Shown: positions 5,065 through 31,360 of the stretch, in pieces
Numbering within the stretch: position 1 is the stretch's first letter
How the letters are laid out: every line of letters starts with the position of its first letter
DNA from: Desulfuromonadales bacterium
Lineage (GTDB): Bacteria; Desulfobacterota; Desulfuromonadia; Desulfuromonadales; JACZKF01
NCBI GenBank assembly: GCA_041677125.1
Contig: JBAYQP010000005.1
Span: forward strand, 23,007-87,006
DNA length: 64,000 nucleotides
Direction: 5' to 3'
The notes under the pieces: model-generated
Databases searched by the model: none
Told to the model about the DNA's origin: nothing
What the model saw: the letters and a program-made list of their open reading frames with translations, nothing else
Program-made: the position numbers and the translations under genes

Positions 5065-5068
5065 AAAA

Positions 5069-6115: not shown

Positions 6116-6140
6116 CTTTGGCAACGGAAGAAACCGGCCG

Positions 6141-6767: not shown

Positions 6768-6818
6768 AGTCCTTTCGGCACGCCCCGTCCCCCTGGTCAA
6801 CCGCCCTGCTCCGCCCCG

Positions 6819-6838
6819 CCCGCCGGCGGGATTTTTTG
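6819..6838 (+). terminator. Possible weak intrinsic terminator after the response regulator gene
   Basis: GC palindrome CCCGCCGGCGGG (6819-6830) followed by ATTTTTT (6831-6837). The stem is short. Confidence 0.4.
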
Positions 6839-6889
6839 ATACAGATACACCCTCCCCGCAAGCGCAGCGACAGGTGGAAGCGCTACGCC

Positions 6890-7045
6890 GGCTCATTGAT
6901 CTCGAAAATCATGAAAGGTCAGCTTGATGGCTTTTCTCTGGAAAAGCTCTGCATGTTGCTGGTGGCGTTCGACCGTGACGTGGATATCGTCATCAAGAAA
7001 CGAAGAAAAGGCGGGAGCGCCCACCTTAAGGTGGTGTACGGCTGA
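6890..7045 (+). pseudogene. 5'-truncated remnant of an XRE-family (HigA/antitoxin-like) DNA-binding protein
   Basis: 'SLISKIMKGQLDGFSLEKLCMLLVAFDRDVDIVIKKR' resembles the C-terminal half of small XRE antitoxins ('...VSDLLRGKIDKFSLDxLvxMLxxxGxxVxIxV'). The helix-turn-helix N-terminal half is absent and the upstream in-frame sequence looks non-protein-like. Confidence 0.4.
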
Positions 7046-7123
7046 AACGACCGGTTTGGTGAGCAGAAAACTTCCACCGCCATAAAAACGAAACTTCGTT
7101 CCGATGCTCACCATGGGCGCCGG

Positions 7124-7867
7124 TCATCCCCGTTTCCGGGAACTGGCCCATAAACCGCCTTCAATCAACGAAGTCCCGCCGTCTTCTTCCCACGTCCAGC
7201 GCAAAAGCGCATTCACCGCCCCACCCGATATCGCCAGCGCCCCGAGGTGCGAGGGTGCGACAAAGAAGTGGCGGAGGCGCCATGCGGAGTTCTCAGGCTC
7301 GGCGAGGTTCGCCGAAAATCCCCCTCCCCTCCCCTTCAGGTACGCCTCCTTGCGCGTCCAGAGCCGGTAGAAGGCACGCCGGCGGCGGTGTGGCGGGGCC
7401 TGCCGCAACGCCGCCTGTTCGGCCGGGGTGAAAAAGCGCTCGGCCAACGGGGCGAAATCCAGAGCAGGGTCGATCCGTTCGAGATCGACGCCGAGCGGCC
7501 GGCCGGCCACCGCCAACAGGAGAAGATCGCCCGAATGGGCCAGGTTGAAATGCAGGGTGCAATAATGTTCGGGGTTCAGGGCGGGTTTGCCGTGCGGACC
7601 GTAAACGAAGGAAAGCTCCGTCGGGGCAAGATCGAGATAGCGGCCGAGAATTTGCCGCAGGCGGGTGCGGCCGGCGGCGAAGGCGTGCGCCTTTTCCGGC
7701 AGGCGCAGGCGCTCGGCGCGGGCAAGTTCGTCGGGAGAGAGCAGGTTTTTGTGCCGCAGATAGCTTTTTTCCGCATCCGCCAGCGACACCCGCCACAGAT
7801 GCGCCTCGTCTGTGCCGAGGCTGAGTCGCTGCGGGGCCGCACGCCAGGGGGATACAGGCGCAAGCAC
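7124..7867 (-). CDS. 4'-phosphopantetheinyl transferase, Sfp type (candidate activator of the Pfa ACP domains)
   Basis: Sfp/EntD-like motifs: 'GPHGKPAL', 'FNLAHSGDLLLLAVA', 'GVDLERI', 'FYRLWTRKEAYLKGRG'. The track ORF (to 8170) has no internal ATG. GTG7867 lies 5 nt after the oleD stop and gives a typical 247-aa product. The upstream 101 codons overlap oleD and are Arg/Pro-rich. Confidence 0.8.
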   Translation of the reverse strand: MLAPVSPWRAAPQRLSLGTDEAHLWRVSLADAEKSYLRHKNLLSPDELARAERLRLPEKAHAFAAGRTRLRQILGRYLDLAPTELSFVYGPHGKPALNPEHYCTLHFNLAHSGDLLLLAVAGRPLGVDLERIDPALDFAPLAERFFTPAEQAALRQAPPHRRRRAFYRLWTRKEAYLKGRGGGFSANLAEPENSAWRLRHFFVAPSHLGALAISGGAVNALLRWTWEEDGGTSLIEGGLWASSRKRG

Positions 7868-7872
7868 GGGCG

Positions 7873-8880
7873 TTATTCGCTCTGGGGCGGCGGCCCGGCG
7901 GCCAGCCAGCGCTCCAGCCGCGCCATCCCTTCGTCGAAGGAGACGCGCGGCGCGTAGCCGAAATCGCGGCGGGCGGCGCTCAGGTCGAACCAGTGGGCGG
8001 TGGAGAGTTCGCGGGCGACGAAGCGGGTCAGACGCGGCTCGCCGGAGAGGCGCAGCCCGCCATAAATTTTCTCCAGCAACCAGCCGATCCGGTAGGCGGC
8101 GGCCGGCGAAATGCTGCGGCGGACCGGGGGCAGGCCGCCGGCGGCGAGGATGCGATTGACGATTTCCCACAACGGCTTTGGCTCCCCCTGGGCGAGGAAG
8201 TAGGCGCGCCCCGCCGGCGGCGAGCCGGCGACGAGACGGTCGGCGGCTTGCAGGTGCGCCTCGGCGGCGTTATCGATGTAGATGGTATCGACCAGGCAGG
8301 GGCGGTTGCCGATGCGGCGCAAGGCGCCGGCCCGGCCGCGGGCGAGAATGCGCGGCGCCAGATGGTTGTCTCCCGGTCCCCAGATCAGGTGCGGGCGCAG
8401 GGCGACAGTGGCGAGGCTGGCGCTGTTGGCGGCCAGCACCAGCCGTTCGGCTTCCGCCTTGGTCGCCGGGTAGCTGGCGTCGAAATGCCGCGGATAAGGG
8501 ATGGACTCGTCCACCCCTTCCATGTCGCTGCCGTCGAAGACGACGCTCGGCGAACTGGTGTAAACGAGTTTGCCGATGTCGTACTGCCGGCAGGCGGCGA
8601 GGACGTTGCGTGTGCCAACCACATTGGCCCGATAAAAATCGGCGTGCGCCCCCCAGACCCCGGCTTTGGCGGCGATATGGAAGACGATGTCGCACCCTTT
8701 CGCGGCTGCGGCCAGCGCCGGCGCATCGGTCAGCTCACCCAGGCAATGCTCGACATCCAGAGCGGCCAGCTCGGGGTGGGGACGCCGGGAGAAGGAGCGG
8801 ACCGCATCCCCACGCGCCCGGAGCAGGCGCACCACGGCTTGGCCGAGAAATCCGCCGCCGCCGGTGACCAGCGCCTTCAC
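7873..8880 (-). CDS. oleD: OleD: NAD(P)H-dependent 2-alkyl-3-ketoalkanoate reductase (3-beta-HSD/SDR family)
   Basis: Rossmann motif 'KALVTGGGGFLG' and catalytic 'SYPATKAEAE' (YxxxK), with overall 3-beta-hydroxysteroid dehydrogenase-like sequence. It is fourth in an oleA-B-C-D order. GTG8880 overlaps the oleC stop (GTGA). The TTG at 8901 is an alternative start. Confidence 0.8.
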   Translation of the reverse strand: MKALVTGGGGFLGQAVVRLLRARGDAVRSFSRRPHPELAALDVEHCLGELTDAPALAAAAKGCDIVFHIAAKAGVWGAHADFYRANVVGTRNVLAACRQYDIGKLVYTSSPSVVFDGSDMEGVDESIPYPRHFDASYPATKAEAERLVLAANSASLATVALRPHLIWGPGDNHLAPRILARGRAGALRRIGNRPCLVDTIYIDNAAEAHLQAADRLVAGSPPAGRAYFLAQGEPKPLWEIVNRILAAGGLPPVRRSISPAAAYRIGWLLEKIYGGLRLSGEPRLTRFVARELSTAHWFDLSAARRDFGYAPRVSFDEGMARLERWLAAGPPPQSE

Positions 8881-10535
8881 GCCAGTTCCTTTTCCGCCCA
8901 AAGGGCGAGCTTCTCGCGAAAAATTTTCGCATTGTGCCGGATATCGACGGGAAACAGAGGGTGAAACAGAACGTCGGCGATGCCGGCGGTCATCGGGTTC
9001 TCCCCGGCACTCGTCAGCAACTCTTCGCGAATACGGGGATAGGCGGAGCGCGGCACGCCAAGTTCGGTCTCGATGCAGATAACCGGGCGCTGCCGCCCCG
9101 GCGCGCCAACACCGACCAGAGCGCTGCGAAACACCTGCCGGTGGGCGTTGAAGAGCGCCTCGCAGGGGATGGTGAACAGGGTGCCGTCGGCGGTGATGAC
9201 GCGGTGCGCCTTGCGCCCGCAGAACCAGATGCGCCCTTGCGCGTCGCGGTAGCCGAGATCGCCCATGCGGTGGAAAAAGCCGCCGGCCGGATCGACGATC
9301 TTGCCCAGTGCCGTCGACTCGGGCCGGCGATAATAGCCGGCTGTCACCTGCGGCCCCTGGACGACGATTTCGCCGATTTCGCCGACGGGCAGTTTCAGTT
9401 CCTCATCCCACCTTGCCACCGGTTCGTCGCTGATGGCGATGATTTCCAGCCGCAGCTCCGGCACCGGCCGGCCGACGCAGATCCCCTCCCCTTTATCGGT
9501 TTGGCGCCGCGTCTGGCCGAGAATTTCCCGGCTGCCGATGGAGCAGACCGGCAACGCCTCGGTGGCGCCGTACGGGGTGAAGATTTGCGTGTCGGGCGAC
9601 AGCAGGGTGGCAAAGCGTTCGAGAACTTTGGCCGGCACCGGCGCGCCGGCGGAAATCACCCGCCGGATGGTGGTCAGGCGGATTCCGTTTTCCAGGCCAT
9701 AGCGCCCAACCCGGTTGATCAGGGCCGGCGAGCCGAACATATTGGTCACGCCGAACTGCTGGATGGCGGCCACCAGCTTTTGCGGGTTAATCAGTGCCGG
9801 GCGGGTGAAGTCCATCTCCGGAATGACCGCCGTCATCCCCAGCGCCGGGTCGAACAGCGCAAAAAGCGGAAAGGTCGGCAGATCGATTTCGCCGGGGCGG
9901 ATATCGTAGAGTTCGCGCAGCCTTTCCACCTGGGCGGCGAAATTGCCGTGGCTGTAGACGGCCCCTTTCGGCGCCCCGGTGCTGCCGCTGGTGAAGAGAA
10001 TGGCCGCCGTCTCCTTTGCGTCCGTCGGCGCCAGGAGATAAGGGCGTTCGCTGGGCACGGTGGCGACCAGCTTCTGCAAGGTCGTCCCGCCCCAGCCGAA
10101 ACGGCGGCCGACGGTCAACAGCAGGCGCAAATCCTTTTTCCCCCAACCGAAGAGGAGGCGGGCGATATGCGCCTTGGGCACGCCGATAAACGCCTCGGGC
10201 GCGGCCTCCTCCAGGCAGACCTTGAGATTCTTCACCCCCATGCCGGGATCGACCAGAATCGGCACCGCGCCGACTTTGAACAGGGCGAAAGTCAGGGCGA
10301 AAAAATCGAGGCCGGGGGGCGCCATCAGCACGGTGCGGACGCCGCGCCCGATGCCGAACCCTTCGAGGGCGTGGGCGATGCGGTTGCTCTCTTGTTCAAG
10401 CTGGGCGAAGGTGGCGTGGCGGTAGGAGAGTTGGCCGTTCCGGCGGTGCGGTACATGGATGGCGGGGGTGTCGGGCTGCTGTCGCGCCATCTCCGGGAGA
10501 TGGGCGGCGATGTTGATCGGGCGCGCTTCGCTCAT
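8877..10535 (-). CDS. oleC: OleC: AMP-dependent synthetase family, olefin beta-lactone synthetase
   Basis: ATG10535 ('MSEARPINIAAHLPEMARQQPDTPAI') overlaps the oleB stop (ATGA). Adenylation motifs 'ILFTSGSTGAPKG', 'YGATE' and 'GDLGYRDAQGRIWFCGRKAHRV'. The N-terminal extension of the track ORF (to 10868) overlaps oleB and was rejected. Confidence 0.85.
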   Translation of the reverse strand: MSEARPINIAAHLPEMARQQPDTPAIHVPHRRNGQLSYRHATFAQLEQESNRIAHALEGFGIGRGVRTVLMAPPGLDFFALTFALFKVGAVPILVDPGMGVKNLKVCLEEAAPEAFIGVPKAHIARLLFGWGKKDLRLLLTVGRRFGWGGTTLQKLVATVPSERPYLLAPTDAKETAAILFTSGSTGAPKGAVYSHGNFAAQVERLRELYDIRPGEIDLPTFPLFALFDPALGMTAVIPEMDFTRPALINPQKLVAAIQQFGVTNMFGSPALINRVGRYGLENGIRLTTIRRVISAGAPVPAKVLERFATLLSPDTQIFTPYGATEALPVCSIGSREILGQTRRQTDKGEGICVGRPVPELRLEIIAISDEPVARWDEELKLPVGEIGEIVVQGPQVTAGYYRRPESTALGKIVDPAGGFFHRMGDLGYRDAQGRIWFCGRKAHRVITADGTLFTIPCEALFNAHRQVFRSALVGVGAPGRQRPVICIETELGVPRSAYPRIREELLTSAGENPMTAGIADVLFHPLFPVDIRHNAKIFREKLALWAEKELA

Positions 10536-11428
10536 GCCGCGTGCGGCTCCAGCGGGTGACGGGCGAGAAAATCGCGAACCAGCGGGATGACCTCTTCGGC
10601 TGCATCCTCGAGGATATAGTGGCCGCAATCGGCGAAGGAGTTCACTTCGGCGCGGGGAAAGCGCCGCCGCCATTCGGCGAGAAAATGCCGGTCGAAGACG
10701 AAATCCCGCTCCCCCCAGCAGATCAGCATCGGCCGGTCGGCAAAACGGTGCAGGCCCGCCTGGACATGGTTGATCATGGCGTAGCCGGCATCGCTCGGCG
10801 CCAGAGGGATGTCCTGGACGAAGCGCAAGGTGGCGATGCGGTTGCGCCACGAATCGTAGGGACGGCAATAGGCGTCGCGCAGTTCGGCCGGCATCGGCCG
10901 GCGCTTGCAGCCGACCCGGGCGGCGGCGCGGGCAAAGGCGTTGCCGCCGCGGATGAGCAGCGAGCCGAGGGGAGTGCGGCAGAGTTTCAGGGCAAAGGGA
11001 AAGCTTTTGCTCGCCGGCAGGTGAAAGGCGGCGGTGTTGAGAATGACCAGACGACGGACGCGTTCGGGATGGCGGCTGGCATAAGCCATGCCGATCATCC
11101 CGCCCCAGTCGTGCAGCACCAGGGTGATCTTTTCGTCGATGCCGAGTTCATCGAGCAACCCGGCCAGATCGTCCACCCGCTGCCGCAAGGTGTAGCTGTA
11201 GAGGGTGTCGTCCGGCTTGTCGGAGAGACCGCAGCCGATGTGGTCGGGGACGATAACCCGGCAACGGTCGCGCAGGGCGAGCACCAGATTGCGGTAGTAG
11301 AAGGACCAGGAAGGATTGCCGTGCAGCATGACCACCGGCTCCCCCGCGCCTTCATCGAGGTAATGCTGGCGCAGGCCGCCGAGGTCGCGGAATTTTCCGG
11401 TAAAGGGATAGAGATCCTTGCTTACCAC
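10532..11428 (-). CDS. oleB: OleB: alpha/beta-hydrolase (haloalkane-dehalogenase-like), beta-lactone decarboxylase
   Basis: 'VVMLHGNPSWSFYYRNL', nucleophile-elbow 'VLHDWGGMIGMAYA' and C-terminal 'CGHYILEDA'. GTG11428 overlaps the oleA stop (GTGGTAA). The track ORF's extension to 11812 lies inside oleA and was rejected. Confidence 0.8.
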   Translation of the reverse strand: MVSKDLYPFTGKFRDLGGLRQHYLDEGAGEPVVMLHGNPSWSFYYRNLVLALRDRCRVIVPDHIGCGLSDKPDDTLYSYTLRQRVDDLAGLLDELGIDEKITLVLHDWGGMIGMAYASRHPERVRRLVILNTAAFHLPASKSFPFALKLCRTPLGSLLIRGGNAFARAAARVGCKRRPMPAELRDAYCRPYDSWRNRIATLRFVQDIPLAPSDAGYAMINHVQAGLHRFADRPMLICWGERDFVFDRHFLAEWRRRFPRAEVNSFADCGHYILEDAAEEVIPLVRDFLARHPLEPHAA

Positions 11429-12465
11429 TGAATCCCCAGCATCAAACAGTTCAGGCCGCTGCCGATGCCGAGGAAGCCGACGATATCCCCGGGCAGGAGA
11501 AGATCGCGTTCCTTGGCGATGGCGGCGGTGATCGGCAGGGAAACGGTGCCCATGTTGCCGAGAAATTCGAAGGTGGTGAAATCTTTTTCCGCGGCAATGC
11601 CGAGGGTCTGCAAAATGAGTTTCTGATGCGCCTCGCCCACCTGGTGGCAGATGACCTTGTTGATGCGCGGGGCGGTCAACTCCAGTTCGGTCAGGAAGGC
11701 ATCCCAGGTGCGCTTGCCGAGTTCGACCCCGTGCTTCATCACGGCCACCGCGTCGGTGCGCATGTAGGGGGTCTGACAGGCCGGATTCTCCCCCTCGATC
11801 CCCCAGCGGCAAAGCGCATGGTGCCGCGGTTCGGCGACATTGACGCCGCCGAGCAGACGCGGCCGGCGCGAGGGCGTGAAGGAGCCGTCGGTGAGGAGAA
11901 TAGCCACCGCGCCGGATCCGCCGGTGAAAGTGGCCAAGGAGGTGGTGAAGAGCTCCATGCTCGGCTTATCGAGCAGGCGGCGCATCATGATTTCGTTGAT
12001 TTCCCGCGAGCTTTCGCAGGCGACGACGAGCCCGGCGCGAATCTGCCCGAGCTCGATGCGGTTGGCGACGTCGAGAACGCCGTTGAGCACCCCCAGACAG
12101 GCATTGGAGATGTCGTAGACGGCGGCATTGCCCTGAATGCCGATGGCGGCGGCGACCTGACAGGCGGTGGCGGGCTCGAAGTGCTCCCGGCAGACGCCGG
12201 CGTAAACCAGCGCGCCGATCTCCTGCGGGGCGACATCGCGCCCCTGCAAAGCCTTGGTTGCAGCGGCAATGGCGCCTTGGGACACCGGCGTGTGCGGCTT
12301 CCACCAACGCCGCTCGCGGATGCCGGTAAGCGCCTCCAGTTGCCCCGGCGCGATGTGCAGCGCCTCGTACATCGGTTTCAGCCGATTTTCCAGCTCCATC
12401 GATGTGACGACGATCGGCGCCAGCTCATAGCCGACCGATTCCAAATATACGCGTGAATATCTCAT
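11422..12465 (-). CDS. oleA: OleA: FabH-like thiolase for head-to-head (non-decarboxylative) Claisen condensation of two acyl thioesters
   Basis: ATG12465 ('MRYSRVYLESVGYELAPIVVTS'). Active-site Cys context 'DISNACLGVLNG'. KAS-III-like C-terminal half ('ICHQVGEAHQKL', 'GNMGTVSLP'). First gene of the A-B-C-D set. Confidence 0.85.
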   Translation of the reverse strand: MRYSRVYLESVGYELAPIVVTSMELENRLKPMYEALHIAPGQLEALTGIRERRWWKPHTPVSQGAIAAATKALQGRDVAPQEIGALVYAGVCREHFEPATACQVAAAIGIQGNAAVYDISNACLGVLNGVLDVANRIELGQIRAGLVVACESSREINEIMMRRLLDKPSMELFTTSLATFTGGSGAVAILLTDGSFTPSRRPRLLGGVNVAEPRHHALCRWGIEGENPACQTPYMRTDAVAVMKHGVELGKRTWDAFLTELELTAPRINKVICHQVGEAHQKLILQTLGIAAEKDFTTFEFLGNMGTVSLPITAAIAKERDLLLPGDIVGFLGIGSGLNCLMLGIQW

Positions 12466-12680
12466 GCCCGTCCGGTTGATTGTTTTACGCAGGATCCCGG
12501 AAGCGGAGGTTAATCCGACTGCCGAATGGATGGTTGTAGCAGAAAATCGCACGCAGGTGAAGGAAAAACCTTCCCGGCGCCTTCCGGGTTGCGCGCCGGC
12601 TGAAGCGGATCCGATGCGCCCTGAAGCACCCGCCAGCAGTCAGGCCCGCCCATTCAGTCACCCGGACAAATCTTCCGCCT

Positions 12681-19577: not shown

Positions 19578-19579
19578 GC

Positions 19580-22500: not shown

Positions 22501-25500
22501 CCGCCAGCAGGACGGCGGCGATCCGCCCGCCCGCCAGGGGAAGCGACGCCGGCGATGCAGCGGCGGCCTGTTGCGCCGAGCCAGCGCCAAGGTGCGCAAC
22601 AATCTGGCCGAGGGTCTGCAAGACGCCGAGGTGCTCGGGACGAATGGCCGGCGCTTCCGGCAGTTGCTCCTGCACGGCGGAGAGAATCTCCACCCGCTTG
22701 ATCGAATCGATGCCCAGATCGGTATCGAGGGCCATATCGAGGTCGAGCATCTCCACCGGATAGCCGGTCTTCTCGGCGATAACCGCCAGCAGGACTTCGG
22801 CGATCCTTTCGCCGGCCACCGGCGCCGCTGCGGGGGCGCCGACCGTTGCCGGCTGACCGTCGCCGAGGTGCTCGACGATCTGGCCGAGGGTCTGCAGGAC
22901 GCCGAGATGCTCCGGGCGAATCACCGGTGCTGCCGGCAGCTGCTCCTGCACGGCGGAGAGAATTTCCACCCGCTTGATCGAATCGATGCCAAGATCGGCG
23001 TCCAGGGCCATATCGAGATCGAGCATTTCCACCGGATAGCCGGTCTTCTCGGCGATGACCGCCAGCAGCACCTCCGCCACCTTGCCGTCGGTGGCCGGTT
23101 GGGAAGGAACTCGGTCCGGGGCCGCAGCCGGTTCGGCAAAGGTAGCGGCAAGCGCCGGAGCGGCTGCGAGCGCCGGGGCCGGGGCCGGGTGCGGCGCCTC
23201 GGCGGGAAACGAAGACGCTCCGACGACGGGTCTCGGCGCTGACGGCACGCCGCCCTGGAAGAGCTGACGCTGCTGTTCGATAAGACCGAGCACGGTGCGA
23301 CCGGCCAGTTCCTGCCCTTCGAGAAACTTCTGATGCAATTGCGCCGTCTGCTCCTGCAAGGTCTGCAACGCCTGCATGCTCTGTTGGGTGAGACGCAGCG
23401 CCTCCTGCAAATTGCCGGCGGGCGCGGCCGGGGCATGCGGCGCATCTCCCATATTTGCCATGCCTCCCACTGCTACCGGCGCCTTCACTGCCGCCTCTCC
23501 CGCTTTCTTCGCCACCGGTGGCCGTTTCGGCGGCGGCTGGAAGTGGTTGGCGCCCGAGATCGGCACGGTCATGCCGGGCTTTTTCTTCTCCGGGCGGTTG
23601 GCCAGCGCCGCCGCTTCGGCGTCCCAGCCACGCAGATCGACGGCATGCCCAAGGGCCGCCAGTTGGGCCAGGGTCCGGGCCAGATCGAGGACTCCGGAGC
23701 GCTTGCCCGCCGAAGCGTCAACAGCCAGCGCCTGATGCTCCTGATCGGCGAGGATCGCCCGGACCATTCCGGTCAACCGGCCGCCGGGGCCAGCTTCGAG
23801 AAAGGTGCGAACGCCCGATGCGTAGAGATTTTGGATTTCATCGACGAACGCGACGGGTCGGGCGAGCTGATTGGCAAGCAGTTGTCGGGCCGCATCGGCC
23901 GATGCCGGATAGGCCTCGCCGGTCGTATTGGCAAAAACCGGGATCTTGGCATCGGCAAAGGGAACATCCCGCAGGCGGGCGGCAAAAGGTCCGCTCGCCT
24001 CGGCCACCAGTTCGCTGTGAAAGGCCGCCGCCACCGAAAGTTCCTTGCAGGCGATTCCTTTGCGCCCGAGAATTTCGGCCGCCTTGCGGATTTCCGCGGT
24101 GGCGCCGGAAAGAACCCCCTGCTGTGGCGTGTTGCGGTTGGCGAGAACCAGAGGCAAACCCTCTTCTCCCAGCAGCTTCTCGATCTCGGCCAGAGGCGAC
24201 GAAACCGCCAGCATCGAACCTCTGTCGCCGGCGCCGGCGGCCATCAATTCGCCGCGCAGACGGGAAAGGGCGTGCAGGGCCGGGCGGTCGAAGCGGCCGG
24301 CGGCGCACAGGGCGGTCAGTTCGCCGTAACTGTGGCCGGCAAAAGCGTCGGCGCGCACGCCGAAGGCGGCGAGAACATCGAGGGCGCCGAGGCTGACCGC
24401 GCCGAGGGCCGGCTGGGCGACTTCGGTGGCCTGCAGACGGCGCTCGTTGGCCGATCGCTGCTCGGCGGTGAAGGCCGGCCGGGGGTGGATAAGTTCGCCC
24501 AGGTCGCCCTGCCCCGCCCCGGCATGAACGGCAAAGGCGGCGTCGGCCTCTTGCAGGGCGTTGAGGAATTCGGGGAAATGCAGCGCCAGATCGCGCAGCA
24601 TGCCGGGATATTGCGCCCCCTGACCGGGGAAAAGGATGGCCAGTCCGCCGGCGGCTGCGCCAACGGACAGGAACACGCCGTCGGGGGTGCTCCAACTCCC
24701 TTCGCCGACGTTATTCTCCAGCAGCGCCAGCGCCTTGCGCATCTGCTCCGACGGATTTCCCTGCTTCTTCTCCAGGGTCAGCAGCAATCGGCATGGGTGG
24801 CGCGGATCGAAAGCGGCGCGGCTGGCGTGCGCCGCCACCCGGATATCGCTCCAGGCCGCCGCAGCGGGAAACCGGTTCATGGCGGCGGTCAACGCACCGC
24901 GCTCCTCGCCGCTGAAGGCGAGAATCTGCATGTCCACCGTCGCGTCGGAAGCCGGCTTGTCCCGACGGTATTCCTCCAGCAGGCAATGGAAATTGCTGCC
25001 GCCGAAACCGAGGGCGCTGACCCCGGCGCGGCGCGGATGGTCGCCACGGGGAATCCAGGGGCGGGCTTCGCTGTTGACGTAGAAGGGGGTGCGGCCGGCG
25101 GTGACCGCCTCCAGCGGCTGCTTGACCTTGATCGTCGGCGGCAAAACTTTGTGGTAGAGGGCCATGGTGGCCTTGATCAGTCCGGCGGCGCCAGCGGCCG
25201 CCTTGGTGTGGCCGATCTGCGACTTGACCGAACCGATGGCGCACCACGGCTGGTCCGCTTCGCCGAAAACCGACCGCAGCGCCTTGATCTCGATGGCGTC
25301 GCCGACTTTGGTGCCGGTGCCGTGCGCCTCGACCAGTTCGATGCTGTCGGGCGTAACGCCCGCCTGCTCGTAGGCGCGGCGCAGAGCTTTTTCCTGGCCG
25401 GCGGCGTTCGGCTCGTAGATCGCCGCGCCTCGGCCGTCGCTGGAGGAGCCGATGCCGCGAACCACGGCATAAATGCGATCGCCGTCCCGTTCGGCGTCGG

Positions 25501-26371
25501 CCAGCCGCTTCAGCACGATGATGCCCAGACCCTCGCCGAGGGTGGTGCCGTCGCCTTCGGCATCGAAGGAGCGGGCGTGGCCGGAGGGGGACAGGGCCGG
25601 GGTCTTGCTGAAACAGGTGTACATGAAGATGTCGTTGAAGGTGTCGATGCCGCCGGTCACCACCATGTCCGTCTTCCCCGCCGCCAGTTCAAGAGCAGCC
25701 AGGTTGAGGGCGCTCAGGGAGCTGCCGCAGGCGGCGTCGCAAACGCAATTGGTGCCGCTGAAATTGAAATGCCGGCTGATCCGCCCGGCGACCACGTTGC
25801 CGAGCAGACCGGGGAAGGAGGTCTCCTGCCAGGGGACGTAGGAGTCGCTGATGCGCCGCATGGCGTCTTCGGCGACCGCATCTTCAACGCCGGCTTCTTT
25901 CAGCGCCACGCGCCAGCGCGGATGCCCAAGGCGCGCGCCCAGGGGAATGACCAGTTCGAGAGTGCCGGTAACCCCGAGGATAACGCTGACCCGCTCCCGG
26001 TCGAACTCCTTCTCCGCTCCGTAGCCGGCGTCCTTGAGCGCCTGATCGACCGCCACCAGACCGAGAAGCTGCGAGGTGTCGGTCGCTTCCAGGGCGTTGG
26101 GGAGGATGCCGTATTCGAGCGGATTAAAATCGACGGGGGACAAAAACCCGCCGTGGCGGGCATAGACCTTGTCCGGCGATTTGGGATCGGCATCGAAATA
26201 GTCCTCCGGCCGCCAGTGGCTCGGCGGCACCTCGGTGATGGCATCGATGCCCTGACGGATGTTGGCCCAGTAAGCGCCGACATTCTCCGCGCCGGGAAAC
26301 AGGCAGCCGAGACCGACAATGGCCAAAGCAGAAGACGAGGGCGGGGTTTGCTTTTCGCGGTTTTTTTTCAA
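19580..26371 (-). CDS. pfaA: PfaA-type PUFA/polyketide synthase subunit: KS - AT - 4x ACP - KR - PKS-type DH
   Basis: KS motif 'CDAACGSSLSALNLA' (Cys codon 25729-25727). AT motif 'GHSYGELTAL' (Ser codon 24331-24329). Four 'LGIDSIKRVEILSA' carrier domains. KR Rossmann motif 'VVVISGGARGVTAEIA' (~21.29 kb). DH motif 'LRSHVMDKKAVLP' (~20.38 kb). The proposed start TTG26371 ('MKKNREKQTPPSSSALAIVGLGCLFPG') overlaps the pfaD stop (TTGA), with AAGGAG ~11 nt upstream. The 62 further codons in the track ORF lie inside pfaD. Confidence 0.9.
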   Translation of the reverse strand: MKKNREKQTPPSSSALAIVGLGCLFPGAENVGAYWANIRQGIDAITEVPPSHWRPEDYFDADPKSPDKVYARHGGFLSPVDFNPLEYGILPNALEATDTSQLLGLVAVDQALKDAGYGAEKEFDRERVSVILGVTGTLELVIPLGARLGHPRWRVALKEAGVEDAVAEDAMRRISDSYVPWQETSFPGLLGNVVAGRISRHFNFSGTNCVCDAACGSSLSALNLAALELAAGKTDMVVTGGIDTFNDIFMYTCFSKTPALSPSGHARSFDAEGDGTTLGEGLGIIVLKRLADAERDGDRIYAVVRGIGSSSDGRGAAIYEPNAAGQEKALRRAYEQAGVTPDSIELVEAHGTGTKVGDAIEIKALRSVFGEADQPWCAIGSVKSQIGHTKAAAGAAGLIKATMALYHKVLPPTIKVKQPLEAVTAGRTPFYVNSEARPWIPRGDHPRRAGVSALGFGGSNFHCLLEEYRRDKPASDATVDMQILAFSGEERGALTAAMNRFPAAAAWSDIRVAAHASRAAFDPRHPCRLLLTLEKKQGNPSEQMRKALALLENNVGEGSWSTPDGVFLSVGAAAGGLAILFPGQGAQYPGMLRDLALHFPEFLNALQEADAAFAVHAGAGQGDLGELIHPRPAFTAEQRSANERRLQATEVAQPALGAVSLGALDVLAAFGVRADAFAGHSYGELTALCAAGRFDRPALHALSRLRGELMAAGAGDRGSMLAVSSPLAEIEKLLGEEGLPLVLANRNTPQQGVLSGATAEIRKAAEILGRKGIACKELSVAAAFHSELVAEASGPFAARLRDVPFADAKIPVFANTTGEAYPASADAARQLLANQLARPVAFVDEIQNLYASGVRTFLEAGPGGRLTGMVRAILADQEHQALAVDASAGKRSGVLDLARTLAQLAALGHAVDLRGWDAEAAALANRPEKKKPGMTVPISGANHFQPPPKRPPVAKKAGEAAVKAPVAVGGMANMGDAPHAPAAPAGNLQEALRLTQQSMQALQTLQEQTAQLHQKFLEGQELAGRTVLGLIEQQRQLFQGGVPSAPRPVVGASSFPAEAPHPAPAPALAAAPALAATFAEPAAAPDRVPSQPATDGKVAEVLLAVIAEKTGYPVEMLDLDMALDADLGIDSIKRVEILSAVQEQLPAAPVIRPEHLGVLQTLGQIVEHLGDGQPATVGAPAAAPVAGERIAEVLLAVIAEKTGYPVEMLDLDMALDTDLGIDSIKRVEILSAVQEQLPEAPAIRPEHLGVLQTLGQIVAHLGAGSAQQAAAASPASLPLAGGRIAAVLLAVIAEKTGYPVEMLELEMALDTDLGIDSIKRVEILSAVQEQLPEAPAVRPEHLGTLQTLGQIVDFLAAGGRRPEPPAEPEKPTAAPLARDTVARTLLAVIAAKTGYPVEMLELDMALDADLGIDSIKRVEILSALQEELPGAPAVRPEHLGTLQTVRQIVDFLASVTGAGPSPAAETAVDSAPRAACIDRKLLKVAPLQGRGDRPALELPAGATIWVGDDGSALAGDICAALTARRLNPVRIDPAQLDALAPPAELVGLILLTPEAGTSDASLQQAFRLLQLAGPGLCAAAASGTALLAGIARLNGCFGLPPGEEPGDPLSGGLAGLVKTAALEWPKLHCKALDLAADAGEGSAETIVAELLLDGPLEVGVSARGLHTLKLTDAPLAGEALPLPIAAGDVVVISGGARGVTAEIAVAMAAACRPTLVLLGRTPAPEAEEAAWLTGLTGEGEIKKGVVAQASAPLKPREIEARYRRIVADREIRATLRRIEAAGGVAVYRPVDLRDSLAVEKAFAAVRAAYGPVRGIVHGAGVLADRRIEDKTIEQFAGVYATKVAGLRALLAAAGEDELKFLALFSSSTGRFGRIGQIDYAVANEVLNKWAQLEARRRPDCRVVSLNWGPWDGGMVTPALKKIFAAEGVEIIDLAAGADYLLRELATAPGGPVELVIAGAKAGAHIEGAAPVAANACISKAFDLDLTVEQYPFLRSHVMDKKAVLPMAMIIEWMAHGAIHNNPGLRFHGFNDLRLLKGVTLLEGHRHTLQVMTGKAFKSGGFHVVPVELSGGDGIAQPFVHARAKIVLAGRLPEGKAAAERLELSPYPLDAAQIYRPERLFHGPDFHGIEEVAGCGKEGIAARVKPAPSPADWIAQPLRNSWLADPLALDSSFQMMILWSFERFQAGSLPVFAGRYRQYREVFPAAGCEIRIRVTRQQESKATADIDFVDPADGRLVARIEDYECVIDASLNQSFQRNKLQGAA
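22010..23085. repeat. Four tandem ~276-291-bp coding repeats (the ACP domains of pfaA)
   Basis: The near-identical block '...gagcatctccaccggatagccggtctt...' / 'atctccacccgcttgatcgaatcgatgcc' recurs. The phosphopantetheine Ser codons fall at ~22131, 22422, 22704 and 22980. Confidence 0.9.
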
Positions 26372-27975
26372 CGGAGGCGCTCCTTGATCTTTTCCATCTG
26401 CAGGGGGGCGATCAGGGCCGCCATATCGGCGATCCGCCCTCCCTGAAGGCGCAACTGATTGGCCCGGACGAGCAGGGCGGCGCCGAAAAGAATATTGTAG
26501 GCAATGGTGGCGACGCGGCGCTGGCCGACATCCTCGAGAAAGGAGCCGCGCACCCATTCGTTAAAGGCGCCCATGGCCGGACCGCACCAGATCTGATAAT
26601 CCATGCGCCGGTCCGCCTCCCCCCGGTTGGCCCAGACCGGCGACTGACCCAGGTACCAGCGGAAAACGAGCGCCATTTTATGTCTGGGATCGGCTTCGGC
26701 CCGGACGATCTGGCGGGGATCGCGCTGTTCGAAATAGCCGCGCGTCTCGGCCCAGACGGTTTCCAGCGGGCGCTGGAAGAAAGTCTTTTCCAGTTTCTGC
26801 CGTTCGGCCGCCGGCAATTGGTCAAGGCTGCCGTGCGCCCGGTACAATTCATAGAGTTTGCCCGCGCGCATGGAGAACATCGTACCACGCTTGAGCACCT
26901 GAACGTGCACGCCCATCTCGAACATGTCGCCCGAGGGCGCCATGGTGATGTCCGCCTGCCGGGTCTCGGCAAGCATCCGCCGCACTTCGTCGCAGGTGCC
27001 CGACTCGATACAGGCCTGGTTGACCGAACCGGTCACCAGATAATCGGCGCCCATGGCAAAAACCGCCGCCGCCGCCGCAGGCGTGGCGATTCCGCCGCCG
27101 AGGCCGATGCGCGGTTGCTGCTCGAAACGGTATTGCTCCTGCATCCGGTCGCGCAGCGTCTGAATCGTCGGCAGCAGCGCCAGAGCCGGCCGATTGTCGG
27201 TATGGCCGCCGCTGTCCGCCTCGGCGGTGATGTCCTGCGCCATCGGGATCAGCGCCGCCAGCTCCGCCTGTTGCACGGTGAGATCGCCGGCGGCGACCAA
27301 TTCGCGCAGCAGACGTTCCGGTGGCGGGGCGAGAAATTTGGCCGCCACCTCCTCGCGGGAGATCTTGGCGATCAGCCGGTTCGGGGCGACGATCCGCCCG
27401 GCGGCATCGCGGCCGATGCCGTGCGTGCGGTAGCGCACCACCGCCGGGGTCAGATCGAGAAAGGCCGAAGCTTCCACCAGCCGAACCTTGCGCCGCAGGT
27501 ACAGATCGACCAGGGCATTCTCCAGATCCGGCTCATTCGGGCTGTGAATCAGGTTGACCCCGAAAGGAAATCCGTCCCCGAGACGCTGCAATTGCTCGAC
27601 CGCCCCTTCCACTTCGCCGAGCGTCAAGCCAGCGGCGCCGAAACAGCCGAGCATCCCCTCCCGGCCGAGAGCCTCGACCATGGCGACAGAGCTGATCCCT
27701 TTGGCCATCGAACCGCCGACATAGGCGAAGCGCAGCCCGTGCTCGGCACAGAAAGCGGCATCCCCCAACCGTTGCAAGGGACAGGCGAGGATGGTTCCGG
27801 CATCCGGTCCGGGCTCCTGCCGAAAGACGGGTATTCCGTCCACCAGCGTGAAGTAGAGCGACTTTTCGATCCGGCGCAAAGCATCCAGCGCAGAAGAAAA
27901 GTCCCCCATTTTGTCAGGCGTGACGATCAAATGATTTTCCTTGCTTGGCGAATCGGCTGAATCTGCTGGCGCCAC
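26368..27975 (-). CDS. pfaD: PfaD-type trans-acting enoyl reductase (FMN-dependent, nitronate monooxygenase/2-nitropropane dioxygenase fold)
   Basis: 'FAYVGGSMAKGISSVAMVEALGREGMLGCFGAAGL', 'FGVNLIHSP', 'ITAEADSGGHTD' and the C-terminal 'YQIWCGPAMGAFNEW' are characteristic of PfaD. The start is uncertain: GTG27975 (3 nt after the ispH stop) or ATG27909. Confidence 0.85.
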   Translation of the reverse strand: MAPADSADSPSKENHLIVTPDKMGDFSSALDALRRIEKSLYFTLVDGIPVFRQEPGPDAGTILACPLQRLGDAAFCAEHGLRFAYVGGSMAKGISSVAMVEALGREGMLGCFGAAGLTLGEVEGAVEQLQRLGDGFPFGVNLIHSPNEPDLENALVDLYLRRKVRLVEASAFLDLTPAVVRYRTHGIGRDAAGRIVAPNRLIAKISREEVAAKFLAPPPERLLRELVAAGDLTVQQAELAALIPMAQDITAEADSGGHTDNRPALALLPTIQTLRDRMQEQYRFEQQPRIGLGGGIATPAAAAAVFAMGADYLVTGSVNQACIESGTCDEVRRMLAETRQADITMAPSGDMFEMGVHVQVLKRGTMFSMRAGKLYELYRAHGSLDQLPAAERQKLEKTFFQRPLETVWAETRGYFEQRDPRQIVRAEADPRHKMALVFRWYLGQSPVWANRGEADRRMDYQIWCGPAMGAFNEWVRGSFLEDVGQRRVATIAYNILFGAALLVRANQLRLQGGRIADMAALIAPLQMEKIKERLR

Positions 27976-27978
27976 GGG

Positions 27979-28830
27979 TCAAAGGGCGGCGAGAGCCCGC
28001 TGGATCTCGTCGATCACCTTCTGCGGGGTGGAGGCGCCGGCGGTGAGGCCGATCCTTGAATAATTCTTCAGCTCCGCCAGCGGCAGTTCGGATACCTTTT
28101 CCACATGCAACACCGGGGTTCCCTGGGCGGCGACCACCTGGGCCAGACGCTTGGTGTTGCTGCTTTCGTAACCGCCGGCCACGATAACGAAGTCGACCTC
28201 GCGGGCAATACGGATCGCTTCTTCCTGGCGCTGCTTGGTGGCGCTGCAGATCGTCTGCAAGACGACCAGGTTGAAATCGCCTCTTTCTTGCAGATCCCGG
28301 ACCAAATCCGAAAAAATTTCTTTATCCTGCGTGGTCTGGGCCGCCAGGCAATACTCCTGGCCCGGCTGGAGCGTCAGGGCGGCCAGCGCCTGCCGCGAAT
28401 TGAAAACGTACGTGGGGCCGCCGGCATAGCTCAACAGGGCCTTCACCTCCGGATGCGTTTCATCCCCGTACAACAAAAGCGTGCGCCCGCCGGCGGTATG
28501 CTTCTCGATGCGCAAACACGCATTGGTCACCTTGGGACAGGTGGCGTCGACAATGGTCACCCCCCGCCGGTGCAGATCCTCGCGCACATTCCGGGCGATG
28601 CCGTGGGCGCGGATGACCACGGTCGCCCCGGACGGCGCCTCGGCCGGAGAAGTCAGGGTGGTAACGCCCCGCCGGGCATATTCCTCGACAACCTGCGGGT
28701 TGTGAATGATCGAACCTAGAATATAGATCGATCCGGGCTCAGTCTCTCTGGCAATCAGATGTTCGAGTTTATAGAGGGCAAGATCGACGCCCATGCAGAA
28801 ACCGGCCTTTTTGGCCCGTACAATTTCCAT
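27979..28830 (-). CDS. ispH: 4-hydroxy-3-methylbut-2-enyl diphosphate reductase (IspH/LytB), cluster-associated second copy
   Basis: ATG28830 ('MEIVRAKKAGFCMGV'). All three cluster Cys are present ('GFCMGV', 'DATCPKV', 'TICSAT'), as are 'IIHN', 'AHG', 'THPEV', 'AQTT', 'SSNT' and 'GASTP'. A second ispH lies at 47625..48470. Confidence 0.85.
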   Translation of the reverse strand: MEIVRAKKAGFCMGVDLALYKLEHLIARETEPGSIYILGSIIHNPQVVEEYARRGVTTLTSPAEAPSGATVVIRAHGIARNVREDLHRRGVTIVDATCPKVTNACLRIEKHTAGGRTLLLYGDETHPEVKALLSYAGGPTYVFNSRQALAALTLQPGQEYCLAAQTTQDKEIFSDLVRDLQERGDFNLVVLQTICSATKQRQEEAIRIAREVDFVIVAGGYESSNTKRLAQVVAAQGTPVLHVEKVSELPLAELKNYSRIGLTAGASTPQKVIDEIQRALAAL

Positions 28831-28910
28831 CTTGTTTAGTTTCCCGGAACGCATCCCCGCCGACGCCCCCACCGGCGAAGCGGAAAGAAGCCTTCGATAA
28901 AATGGGGTGA

Positions 28911-28939
28911 ATTATAGGGATTAACCGGGAGTATGCCAA
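28911..28939 (-). promoter_or_regulatory. Sigma-70-type promoter reading into ispH-pfa-ole
   Basis: On the minus strand: TTGGCA (28939-28934), 17 nt, TATAAT (28916-28911). This is ~80 nt upstream of ATG28830, and the tRNA-Val terminator lies upstream of it. Confidence 0.55.
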
Positions 28940-28965
28940 GGTTTAATTTGTCGGTTTAATTTGTC
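28940..28965 (-). promoter_or_regulatory. Perfect tandem 13-bp direct repeat abutting the -35 element (candidate activator site)
   Basis: Minus strand reads GACAAATTAAACC GACAAATTAAACC, immediately followed by TTGGCA. It is an AT-rich island in GC-rich DNA. Confidence 0.5.
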
Positions 28966-29028
28966 GCGCCGCTCCCACCCGCACGTGAGCGGTGCGGGGC
29001 GGAGCAGATCGGCCGCGCTTGTTCCCGC

Positions 29029-29060
29029 AAAAAAGGCACCCAGGAGAAATCCTGAGTGCC
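29029..29060 (-). terminator. Rho-independent terminator downstream of tRNA-Val
   Basis: Minus strand: GGCACTCAGG-atttct-CCTGGGTGCC followed by TTTTTT. Confidence 0.8.
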
Positions 29061-29068
29061 TGAATATC

Positions 29069-29143
29069 TGGTGGGCGATGTTGGGATTGAACCAACGACC
29101 CCTCGCGTGTGAGGCGAGTGCTCTCCCGCTGAGCTAATCGCCC
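29069..29143 (-). tRNA. tRNA-Val (anticodon CAC), CCA encoded
   Basis: Reverse complement GGGCGATTAGCTCAGCGGGAGAGCACTCGCCTCACACGCGAGGGGTCGTTGGTTCAATCCCAACATCGCCCACCA folds as a 75-nt cloverleaf. Acceptor GGGCGAT/ATCGCCC; anticodon stem CTCGC/GCGAG with loop CT-CAC-AC; T arm GTTGG-TTCAATC-CCAAC. Confidence 0.95.
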
Positions 29144-29222
29144 GGGAATGTGAACAGGTTTGGATTTATAGCAACTCGGACTTGCGCTGTCAATGGAAAA
29201 ACCGGAAAAGCCGGCGGCAAGT

Positions 29223-30188: not shown

Positions 30189-30192
30189 TTTT

Positions 30193-30600: not shown

Positions 30601-30684
30601 CTCCTTTGAATCATCGGAATGGAAATCGAATTAACAGGAGGCACAGGATGTTCAGGATAGGTAAGCCGTTTTATTTTGTTCGGA

Positions 30685-31227: not shown

Positions 31228-31360
31228 ACCGGGTCCTTCGCGGTTTGAATTTCGGTGCTGCCGATGGGGGGAAAGGGGCGATCGGCCGACGGATGCAAAA
31301 ACGGCAGTTGGAGAAACCGCCGTTATATTTAAGCGAAACTAAAAAGATTTAGCAGGGCGA

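Follow-up and report, generated by a model that had tools for sequence, protein, structure and literature searches.

A published-type pfa-ole gene cluster headed by a second IspH paralog in a Desulfuromonadales bacterium

Gene content of the cluster

A Desulfuromonadales bacterium known from a metagenome contig alone (JBAYQP010000005.1) carries a run of genes in which a Pfa-type synthase adjoins an OleABCD olefin pathway, raising the questions of whether this architecture is new, whether it is a single operon, what it makes, and why an ispH gene stands at its head. The explanation that accounts best for the whole, and that we consider likely, is a pfa-ole polyolefin cluster of the published type, transcribed as two units, with the IspH paralog (IspH2) as a co-expressed HMBPP reductase. 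Positions are those of the window, i.e. the whole 64,000-nucleotide stretch of DNA analysed. The genes and the boundaries of the cluster are:

29069-29143, minus strand: tRNA-Val(cac), upstream boundary (ARAGORN; Rfam tRNA, 67 bits)
29061..29034, minus strand: 12-bp hairpin and T-run after tRNA-Val, upstream boundary (terminator scan)
27979..28830, minus strand: ispH2, HMBPP reductase paralog, 283 aa (Pfam LYTB, E 1.5e-81)
26368..27975, minus strand: pfaD, FMN-type enoyl reductase (TIGR02814 pfaD_fam, 644 bits; cutoff 449)
19580..26371, minus strand: pfaA, KS-MAT-4×ACP-KR-(PS-DH) (TIGR02813, 1623 bits; cutoff 1010; Pfam domains)
12681..19577, minus strand: pfaC, a pfaB/C fusion, KS-CLF-AT-2×FabA-type DH (Pfam)
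11422..12465, minus strand: oleA, head-to-head Claisen-condensing thiolase (PRK09258, 465 bits; cutoff 285)
10532..11428, minus strand: oleB, alpha/beta hydrolase of haloalkane-dehalogenase type, beta-lactone decarboxylase (Pfam Abhydrolase_1)
8877..10535, minus strand: oleC, AMP-dependent beta-lactone synthetase (PRK09274, 779 bits; cutoff 478)
7873..8880, minus strand: oleD, NAD(P)H-dependent 2-alkyl-3-oxoalkanoate reductase (NF042422, E 2e-132)
7124..7867, minus strand: pfaE-type (Sfp/HetI-like) PPTase (Pfam ACPS and AASDHPPT_N; HetI model, 176 bits)
7103..7089 and 7027..7008, minus strand: two terminator-like hairpins 3' of the PPTase stop, downstream boundary (terminator scan)
6141-6767, plus strand: LuxR-type response regulator, the next gene beyond the PPTase, convergent

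All nine consecutive minus-strand ORFs (7124-28872) are free of internal stops, confirming that the nine-gene unit of the preliminary description is real. The eight junctions given there are exact (ispH-pfaD, 3 nt; pfaD-pfaA, TTGA overlap; pfaA-pfaC, 2 nt; pfaC-oleA, 215 nt; oleA-oleB, GTGGTAA overlap; oleB-oleC, ATGA; oleC-oleD, GTGA; oleD-PPTase, 5 nt), and seven of them overlap or span at most 5 nt. The start of pfaD is probably TTG 27930, as in the JGI gene call of the source metagenome (520 aa), with a Shine-Dalgarno sequence AAGGAA 7 nt upstream; the ispH-pfaD gap therefore becomes 48 nt, not 3 nt.

Pfam and family models assign each of the nine products and, together with PDB matches, back all the gene names proposed earlier; motif checks of the products agree that the catalytic motifs are intact in every domain. 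PfaA contains DAACGSS, HGTGT, SQIGH, GHSYG, four copies of LGIDS, GGARGVT and YAVAN; PfaC contains the KS motifs DAACASS, HATGT and SNIGH, a CLF without Cys at the KS active-Cys position (SEENSG), the AT motif GYSLG and the DH motifs CHF..PG and AHF..PG, and the pfaB_fam match spans its residues 1036-1338. The best PDB match of OleA is Xanthomonas OleA (3ROW, E 4e-48; FabH only about 1e-12), and the equivalents of Cys143, Glu117, His285 and Asn315 are all kept in the alignment to that enzyme. OleB matches haloalkane dehalogenases best and has the HDWGG nucleophile elbow and the His of a C-terminal GHY; OleC has TSGSTGAPKG and YGATE, OleD has GGGGFLG and YPATK, and the PPTase has HGKP, FNLAH, GVDLE and WTRKEAYLK. 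OleC scores 685 and 678 bits against the olefin beta-lactone synthetase models, whose strict cutoffs are higher (900 and 850, respectively), and OleD scores 441 bits against NF042422, under the 580-bit cutoff yet by far its top match. That both fall under NCBIfam strict equivalog cutoffs counts against the overall explanation.

Relation to known clusters

Judged by gene order and content, the architecture had already been published, as the Type I pfa cluster accompanied by ole genes and pfaE. Shulse & Allen (2011) described this "Type I" secondary-lipid cluster from anaerobic Deltaproteobacteria, with ole genes often linked (PMC3098273), as the preliminary description had mentioned; it has a pfaBC fusion and a PPTase nearby, and its hosts, among them Desulfuromonas, Pelobacter and Geobacter, are tied to obligate anaerobiosis. 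The present cluster shares with it the leading pfaD, the fused pfaB/pfaC, the nearby PUFA-type PPTase and the linked ole genes. Geobacter bemidjiensis likewise has pfaD-A-B-C-oleABCD-pfaE in tandem (Yoshida et al. 2016, PMC4882568). Geobacter (Citrifermentans) bemidjiensis Bem and the present host, both anaerobic former Deltaproteobacteria with the same expected product, have in common pfaD, pfaA, a pfaB/C-type gene, oleA-D and a terminal PPTase; the present cluster differs from the G. bemidjiensis gene order as published in the IspH paralog that precedes pfaD, and its OleA is only 66-68% identical to those of the Geobacter-type loci L075-L080.

The order pfaC-oleABCD-PPTase recurs in about 50 related genomes, and cultured relatives with the same cluster are Desulfuromusa kysingii DSM 7343 and Malonomonas rubra DSM 5091. 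Among related genomes pfaC lies upstream of oleA at 49 of 62 loci, oleBCD follows oleA in order at 54 of 57, and the PPTase comes next in 49 of those 54; the arrangement is far from chance. The ole genes can nevertheless exist apart from pfa, since some close relatives (Trichloromonas loci L001, L006 and L007) carry ole-PPTase but lack a pfaC in the adjoining 8-10 kb.

One transcription unit or two

Three elements bear on how the cluster is transcribed:

28939..28911, minus strand: sigma-70-like promoter TTGGCA-17-TATAAT before ispH2 (consensus scan, 11/12)
12564..12588, minus strand: weak terminator-like hairpin CCCGG-aaggcg-CCGGG with GTTTTT, in the pfaC-oleA spacer (terminator scan)
12533..12562, minus strand: promoter-like element CTTCACCTG…TGcTACAAC, in the pfaC-oleA spacer (aligned block of relatives)

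The promoter before ispH2 lies just downstream of tRNA-Val and its T-run hairpin, is conserved in the 81%-identical relative L162, and is the only unit-associated minus-strand sigma-70 consensus match in the parts scanned (6500-13000 and 26000-31500). It had accordingly been proposed as the sole promoter of one translationally coupled nine-gene operon. That each block is tightly coupled and that this consensus match stands alone in the scanned parts both hold, and the co-direction of all nine genes, the seven close junctions, the weakness of the spacer hairpin and a pfaC-oleA distance of just 2-11 nt in Geobacter-type relatives (L075, L078-L080), as against 215 nt here, are what a single operon would lead one to expect.

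We nonetheless regard a single operon as doubtful. The spacer element, TTCACC-17-TACAAC with an upstream TG, lies 76 nt ahead of the ATG of oleA and is recognisable only through comparison with relatives. About 36 of 76 related loci, among them loci without pfaC upstream, have it at a distance of 50-130 nt before oleA, against a chance expectation of 0.04 per locus for its -10-like half alone; the bipartite pattern is found once in the window and, across all related loci compared, almost exclusively upstream of oleA. Here it is preceded by the hairpin and T-run, and the pfaC-oleA gap of relatives ranges from -1 nt to more than 8 kb, at times with opposite-strand genes inserted. Because a conserved, oleA-specific promoter-like motif occupies the spacer, two transcription units appear likelier than one: ispH2-pfaD-pfaA-pfaC would be transcribed from the promoter at 28939..28911, and oleABCD-PPTase from the element at 12562..12533. 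Since the hairpin stem is only 5 bp, some transcription of the pfa unit may quite possibly continue past it. The element is without the usual T at the final -10 position and could be a regulator binding site instead of a promoter. Two adjacent units would resemble the pfa-pfaT-ole locus of Photobacterium profundum SS9, where two operons adjoin (PMC6463001).

A second IspH at the head of the cluster

The first gene had been taken as an ordinary ispH; it is a cluster-specific second paralog. Its longest ORF begins at GTG 28872 (27979-28872), and ATG 28830 (MEIVRAKKAGFC) is the more likely start because matches to family models set in only at residue 15-16 of the long ORF. The window also contains a housekeeping ispH (47625-48470, context cmk-ispH-rpsA), whose product is 39% identical to IspH2. 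IspH2 falls in a distinct clade, characterised by two further conserved Cys (105 and 161) and cleanly apart from the housekeeping clade (34-42% identity to housekeeping IspH of the same order). IspH2 scores 251 bits against TIGR00216 (cutoff 188), and the three cluster Cys and every HMBPP-binding residue of E. coli IspH align in it, as in the canonical enzymes (E. coli 3KE8, Aquifex 3DNF). It differs from these, and from LytB1 and LytB2 of Mycobacterium tuberculosis, in its own clade, its linkage to pfaD and its occasional fusion to PfaD.

The eight members of the clade that were sampled are each followed immediately by pfaD or a remnant of it (gaps, 9-48 nt), and one of them is fused to it. 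Different genera (53-81% identity) retain this adjacency, while what lies further upstream changes in every lineage sampled; ispH2 is retained even beside a truncated pfaD remnant, and two separate assemblies encode an in-frame IspH-PfaD fusion protein of 827 aa. The gene is absent from other Pfa/Ole clusters (D. soudanensis L161, L164 and L165) and from all 80 more distant pfaD loci checked. A link of ispH or lytB to pfa or ole genes was not found in the literature searched, and the Type I description of Shulse & Allen (2011) mentions neither gene (PMC3098273); a dedicated second IspH thus appears to be the one unreported feature of an otherwise published cluster. The known Pfa/Ole pathway has no step requiring an IspH.

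The simplest reading of IspH2 is that of an HMBPP reductase isozyme, co-expressed with the cluster, canonical in its residues and linked to pfaD across the order. A tentative alternative, which we think unlikely on balance, is that it functions in the Pfa/Ole pathway itself, as an Fe-S partner trading electrons with the flavoenzyme PfaD or on a non-isoprenoid substrate: the adjacency to pfaD in all eight sampled members despite differing upstream neighbours, the fusions, and the distinct clade with its extra Cys are consistent with this, whereas the conservation of all residues with which E. coli IspH binds HMBPP at its diphosphate and hydroxyl, the score above the IspH equivalog cutoff, the pfaD loci that do without ispH2, and the function of the Shewanella genes in E. 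coli without it (PMC6463001) argue against it. Still less probable is a duplicate that landed by chance beside pfaD; duplicated IspH occurs in other bacteria, e.g. LytB1 and LytB2 of M. tuberculosis (PMC4550268), and part of the pfaD loci lack ispH2, but chance would hardly preserve the adjacency across genera and beside a pfaD remnant while the genes farther upstream differ, nor produce fusion ORFs with PfaD.

Expected product and hand-off to OleA

The mechanism proposed for the pfa, ole and PPTase genes draws on established family biochemistry and on relatives. The PPTase would load the four ACP domains of PfaA; PfaA, PfaB/C and PfaD would assemble a polyunsaturated, ACP-bound acyl chain in iterative rounds, independently of O2 (16:4n-3 is the intermediate used in Shewanella); OleA would condense two Pfa chains head-to-head, probably taken straight from the synthase; OleD would reduce the beta-keto acid, OleC close the beta-lactone and OleB decarboxylate it to a cis-olefin, giving a C31:9-type polyene. 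A long polyunsaturated olefin, as previously predicted for this anaerobe, is the expected product by analogy with G. bemidjiensis, a relative sharing the gene order, which makes C31:9 (Sukovich et al. 2010, AEM 76:3850, as cited in both PMC4882568 and PMC3098273).

Pfam and family models find neither a thioesterase nor an AGPAT domain in the nine products, as had been claimed, and no hot-dog (pfaT-like) thioesterase is encoded in the cluster or the 30 flanking ORFs tested. The transfer from ACP to OleA had been called unexplained; it is not wholly so, as Allemann (2019) gave evidence for a direct supply of OleA by the Pfa synthase, the two interacting directly in vivo (PMC6463001). It is improbable that Pfa instead feeds PUFA to membrane lipids while OleABCD condenses FAS II chains, the linkage reflecting co-regulation with no substrate channel, for although the ole block apparently has its own regulatory element, some relatives have ole-PPTase without adjacent pfaC, and Shulse & Allen left open a stand-alone product of pfa homologs (PMC3098273), the nine products offer no AGPAT or thioesterase with which to free a PUFA or pass it to phospholipid, the 30 flanking ORFs tested add no hot-dog thioesterase, the PPTase that PfaA needs ends the ole block, G. 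bemidjiensis makes C31:9, and Shewanella OleA uses Pfa-derived chains only (PMC6463001).

Hand-off of Pfa chains to OleA would match the cooperation of pfaA-E and oleABCD in Shewanella oneidensis and S. pealeana (PMC6463001). Gammaproteobacterial clusters differ in their separate pfaB, their pfaT hot-dog thioesterase and the order pfaA-D, and in also making EPA or DHA for membranes. The OleB, OleC and OleD families are shared with Xanthomonas campestris and Stenotrophomonas, where OleABCD is biochemically and structurally characterised, though the Ole enzymes there use FAS II-derived acyl-CoA with no link to a Pfa synthase. OleA and 3ROW can be aligned over their full length, the present OleA carrying 9 inserted residues that the Xanthomonas enzyme lacks.

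Composition and boundaries of the cluster

Analysis of the window confirms the nine minus-strand open reading frames (ORFs) that the preliminary description placed at 7124-28965 (ispH2-pfaD-pfaA-pfaC-oleA-oleB-oleC-oleD-PPTase), all free of internal stops. The junctions are also exactly as described: 3 nt between ispH2 and pfaD; a TTGA overlap of pfaD and pfaA; 2 nt between pfaA and pfaC; a 215-nt spacer between pfaC and oleA (12466-12680); a GTGGTAA overlap of oleA and oleB; ATGA and GTGA overlaps at oleB-oleC and oleC-oleD; and 5 nt between oleD and the PPTase gene. The start of ispH2 (27979-28830) is most likely ATG 28830, because the family models match the long ORF only from residue 15-16 onward. 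The gene call of the source metagenome, whose 72.5-kb JGI contig Ga0265293_10000799 contains the window, starts pfaD at TTG 27930, preceded by an AAGGAA Shine-Dalgarno sequence, which gives a gap of 48 nt after ispH2 rather than 3 nt.

The cluster boundaries are clean on both sides. On the 3' side, two terminator-like hairpins past the PPTase stop codon are followed by a convergent response regulator gene. Features upstream of the cluster are:

28939..28911 (-), TTGGCA-17-TATAAT promoter-like site ahead of ispH2
29061..29034 (-), strong hairpin with a T-run, between tRNA-Val and the promoter-like site
29069-29143, tRNA-Val, 5' boundary of the cluster
36613-38268 (-), B12-binding radical-SAM protein with DUF4070
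40203-40288 (-), second tRNA
40865-41686 (-), futalosine-type menaquinone biosynthesis gene (VitK2_biosynth)

Genes for a HisKA_3 histidine kinase and the LuxR-type response regulator (4871-6767, plus strand) converge on the end of the PPTase gene. Directly upstream of the tRNA-Val boundary, 29223-31227 (minus strand) encodes a MeaB-like GTPase, a B12-binding domain protein and a CobO adenosyltransferase, and the same neighbours occur in L162, a relative of 81% identity. Scanned in full with Rfam at gathering thresholds, the window gave the two tRNAs only; the spacer had no match to a riboswitch or to any other known RNA.

Enzymes of polyene synthesis

Annotation with Pfam and NCBIfam models supports every gene name, and the catalytic motifs are intact, as had been claimed, across the KS, CLF, AT, ACP, KR, DH, Ole and PPTase products. 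PfaA scores 1623 bits against TIGR02813 (cutoff 1010) and has the expected KS-MAT, tandem ACPs and KR, with four LGIDS ACP motifs and active-site motifs; the enoyl reductase PfaD scores 644 bits against TIGR02814 (cutoff 449). PfaC contains two KS-like domains and four FabA stretches according to Pfam, corresponding to a KS-CLF pair and two FabA-type DH domains. Cys-His-His is present in both KS domains and the active-site Cys is absent from the CLF; the AT motifs GHSYG and GYSLG, the KR motifs and two FabA-type DH His motifs were also found. PfaC is a PfaB/C fusion, since a PfaB-like AT lies at residues 1036-1338 of its 2298 residues. The PPTase is Sfp/HetI-like, with P1a, P2 and P3 motifs; compared with the PUFA-type motifs (P0 hRxhLS, P1a x[G/D]xP, P1b [F/S]NxSH; PMC3098273), its P1a is HGKP, and P1b (FNLAH, A for S) and P0 (HKNLLS, K for R) are near-matches. 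No pfaT-like hot-dog thioesterase was found among 30 flanking ORFs, a few small ones of which have no Pfam match.

OleA is borne out as such and not as FabH: it scores 465 bits against PRK09258 (cutoff 285), and its best solved relative is Xanthomonas OleA (3ROW, E 4e-48), versus ~1e-12 for FabH. The residues that we take to be catalytic in X. campestris OleA (Cys143, Glu117, His285, Asn315) all have aligned equivalents. The top NCBIfam and PDB matches of OleB are haloalkane dehalogenases, the group of alpha/beta hydrolases with an Asp nucleophile to which OleB enzymes belong, and the HDWGG motif is present; as NCBIfam gave no model named for OleB, the gene was assigned by its family, motif and position. 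Two models for olefin beta-lactone synthetases, NF045786 and NF045785, match OleC over the full length with 685 and 678 bits, below their very strict cutoffs of 900 and 850. OleC exceeds the PRK09274 cutoff of 478 with 779 bits; it contains a P-loop, and a PDB search gave no match at E <= 1e-30. OleD matches the 2-alkyl-3-oxoalkanoate reductase model NF042422 with 441 bits (E 2e-132), below the strict cutoff of 580, the next unrelated family, HpnA, scoring 153 bits, and has Rossmann fold and YxxxK motifs. The four ole genes follow one another on the same strand as A-B-C-D, with overlaps of 7, 4 and 4 nt.

The biochemistry of these families, taken together with the relatives, makes the following pathway quite likely: the PPTase would activate the four ACPs of PfaA; the O2-independent synthase would build a polyunsaturated acyl-ACP; OleA would condense two synthase-derived chains; and OleD, OleC and OleB would then turn the condensed product into a C31:9-like cis-polyene. 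A long-chain cis-olefin is predicted as the product by analogy with G. bemidjiensis.

Conservation in Desulfuromonadales and relation to known clusters

Synteny was compared across 80 related genome loci, all from Desulfuromonadales, the order to which the source organism also belongs; like synteny, the domain content, active sites, coupling within blocks, oleA element, IspH paralogy and pfaD linkage are established from sequence. The closest genome locus (L003) and L162 were kept out of fine comparisons for apparent frameshifts: pfaA is split in L162, and best-segment identities are anomalously low in L003. The pfaC gene lies upstream of oleA on the same strand in 49 of 62 related loci; oleBCD follow oleA in order in 54 of 57, and the PPTase gene comes next in 49 of those. 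The pfa-ole arrangement is the norm across Desulfuromonadales, in dozens of genomes that include cultured, testable strains (Malonomonas rubra, Desulfuromusa kysingii and Pelovirga terrestris). Two loci (L070, L071) have a rearranged ole block, in which oleB, oleC and oleD lie downstream of oleA on the opposite strand.

The cluster has a pfaBC fusion (the AT lying inside the KS-CLF-DH2 protein), pfaD as the 5'-most pfa gene and a deltaproteobacterial anaerobe as host, and on these features is placed in Type I, the secondary-lipid class that Shulse & Allen 2011 tied to obligate anaerobes with a PUFA-type PPTase nearby (PMC3098273). From the production of hentriacontanonaene by G. bemidjiensis, the same authors propose that olefin synthesis draws its precursors from Type I clusters (PMC3098273); C31:9 in this species is reported there and by Yoshida et al. 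(PMC4882568), both citing Sukovich 2010. Yoshida et al. also discuss a possible antioxidant role of the olefin product in strict anaerobes (PMC4882568). The hand-off from ACP to OleA, which the preliminary description called unexplained, has already been addressed by Allemann et al. 2019: in vivo, OleA diverts Pfa-derived chains, and it probably acts directly on the PfaA ACP domains, the pfaT thioesterase being merely accessory (PMC6463001).

The functional reading first given to the cluster is therefore essentially right, but neither the architecture nor the predicted product is new. Publications on an anaerobe with a PUFA synthase joined to an olefin pathway date from 2010-2016, and the combination by itself opens no new question; as architecture and product were already published, the finding as first written is an ordinary further case of a known cluster type. 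Modest additions are the linkage of ispH2 and an oleA-specific element; we did not find either described in the literature searched, which, the two key reviews included, makes no mention of ispH/lytB together with pfa or ole genes. The GC content of the pfa genes is 65-70% (12000-26000) versus ~60% in the flanks, a difference that would fit either codon bias or the horizontal transfer that has been suggested for clusters of Type I.

A paralogous ispH gene linked to pfaD

The window encodes a second LytB of housekeeping type (IspH1), 39% identical to IspH2, which identifies the ispH gene of the cluster as a paralog. IspH1 is found in the classic pheA-tyrA-aroA-cmk-ispH-rpsA context:

45781-47520, rpsA
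47625-48470 (-), housekeeping ispH (lytB)
48537-49265, cmk

Searches with IspH2 and IspH1 retrieve disjoint sets of homologs, which split cleanly in a neighbour-joining tree; members of the IspH2 set share 53-100% identity with one another and those of the IspH1 set 61-100%, against 34-42% between the sets. At least 90% of the IspH2 clade possess Cys105 and Cys161 (codons at ~28516-28518 and ~28348-28350 of the window), where the housekeeping clade has Gln and Gly. We take the functional residues of IspH, in E. coli numbering, to be the three [4Fe-4S] Cys, His41, His74, His124, Glu126, Thr167, Ser225, Ser226, Asn227 and Ser269. Alignment to E. coli IspH structures indicates that IspH2 keeps the three [4Fe-4S] Cys and all HMBPP-binding residues, and loss of HMBPP binding is rejected because every binding residue is conserved. 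Since IspH2 also passes the IspH equivalog cutoff (TIGR00216, 251 bits; cutoff 188), the conservative reading is that it may serve as a co-expressed HMBPP reductase isozyme.

Genes of the IspH2 clade lie directly upstream of pfaD in all eight contexts examined (the window, L162, Desulfuromusa kysingii (L167), and the related loci L168, L169, L171, L163 and L170), and the genes upstream of ispH2 differ in each lineage sampled. In L163 (908-3391), IspH and PfaD are joined in one in-frame ORF of 827 aa, and the fusion (protein P0361) occurs in two separate metagenome assemblies (a JGI contig of 4811 nt and an ENA contig of 7104 nt). In L170 (3001-4537), ispH2 is followed by a remnant of PfaD only (the N-terminal 222 residues, 67% identical) and then by unrelated MFS and IMPDH genes; either the cluster has decayed, or the locus is misassembled close to a contig end. 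At least 12 further IspH2 matches come from contigs of the same length as those of PfaD matches, which is circumstantial evidence of linkage. No ispH2 occurs at the pfaD loci of D. soudanensis, L164 and L165, and a metagenome scan with PfaD, which served as a negative control, found no ispH upstream in 80 more distant pfaD loci (identities <=66%).

The fusion of IspH to the PfaD flavoenzyme leaves room for a more direct role than that of an isozyme. We consider a pathway-specific role of IspH2 unlikely, and similarly doubtful the proposition that ispH2 would belong integrally to the pfa-ole cluster of Desulfuromonadales as its conserved first gene, with a functional coupling to the anaerobic synthesis of polyunsaturated lipids or olefins. 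In such a coupling, IspH2 could exchange electrons with the flavoprotein PfaD, act on a substrate other than an isoprenoid, or supply an isoprenoid partner lipid that has to be made alongside. If functional, the link would tie isoprenoid or Fe-S redox chemistry to anaerobic polyene synthesis, and might be relevant to the antioxidant function proposed for these lipids in strict anaerobes.

A conserved element upstream of oleA

The nine genes had been described as one coupled operon behind a single promoter. Operon-like coupling holds within each block, but the spacer contains a conserved oleA-specific element and the gap between pfaC and oleA is variable. A weak hairpin with a T-run (12588..12564, minus strand) is directly followed by CTTCACCTGcgtgcgattttcTGcTACAAc (12562..12533), which reads TTCACC-17-TACAAC with an extended -10 TG. 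The element lies 76 nt ahead of oleA, has the bipartite form CTTCACCTG…TGnTACAA and is a conserved block in the alignment of oleA upstream regions. Of 76 loci, 39 have its -10-like half in the 300 nt preceding oleA, against a chance expectation of 0.04 per locus, and ~36 have the full bipartite form; the bipartite pattern is found once in the 64-kb window and, across related loci, almost only upstream of oleA.

In the relatives, the distance from pfaC to oleA ranges from -1 nt to >8 kb, exceeding 1 kb in 19 of 49. The interval in Desulfuromusa kysingii (L029, 7988-9883) encodes a secreted-looking protein of 163 aa and an ORF of 461 aa that looks, by eye, like a pyridine-nucleotide disulfide oxidoreductase; that of locus L011 (2753-10000) contains 7 kb of unrelated genes, partly on the opposite strand, including by eye a rubredoxin-type oxidoreductase and a DEAD-box helicase. 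The element is kept where pfaC is 97 nt away, where it is 1.5-2 kb away behind inserted genes, and where it is absent (Trichloromonas loci), and is missing where the gap is 2-11 nt (Geobacter-type loci). Three Trichloromonas metagenome-assembled genomes (L001, L006, L007) possess oleABCD-PPTase with the upstream motif and have no pfaC within 8-10 kb upstream, so the ole block is uncoupled from pfa in some close relatives.

On these sequence patterns, we lean towards two promoters rather than one. The element upstream of oleA is a candidate promoter that could instead be an operator, its -10 hexamer being without the canonical final T. Regulation of the cluster is probably bipartite, and the oleA-specific element would offer a handle on the control of hydrocarbon synthesis separate from that of the synthase. 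Co-regulation of the pfa and ole blocks by one shared motif is rejected, because no oleA-type motif precedes ispH2 or pfaD, either in the window or in relatives, and these upstream regions differ between lineages.

Sigma-54 activator genes adjoin the ispH2-pfa block in L167 (2011-3363) and L168 (2232-3572), and in L168 a GG-N10-GC element, TGGCAACTAGTTAGCT, precedes ispH2 by ~55 nt. Unlike in the window, the pfa block of these two lineages may depend on sigma-54.
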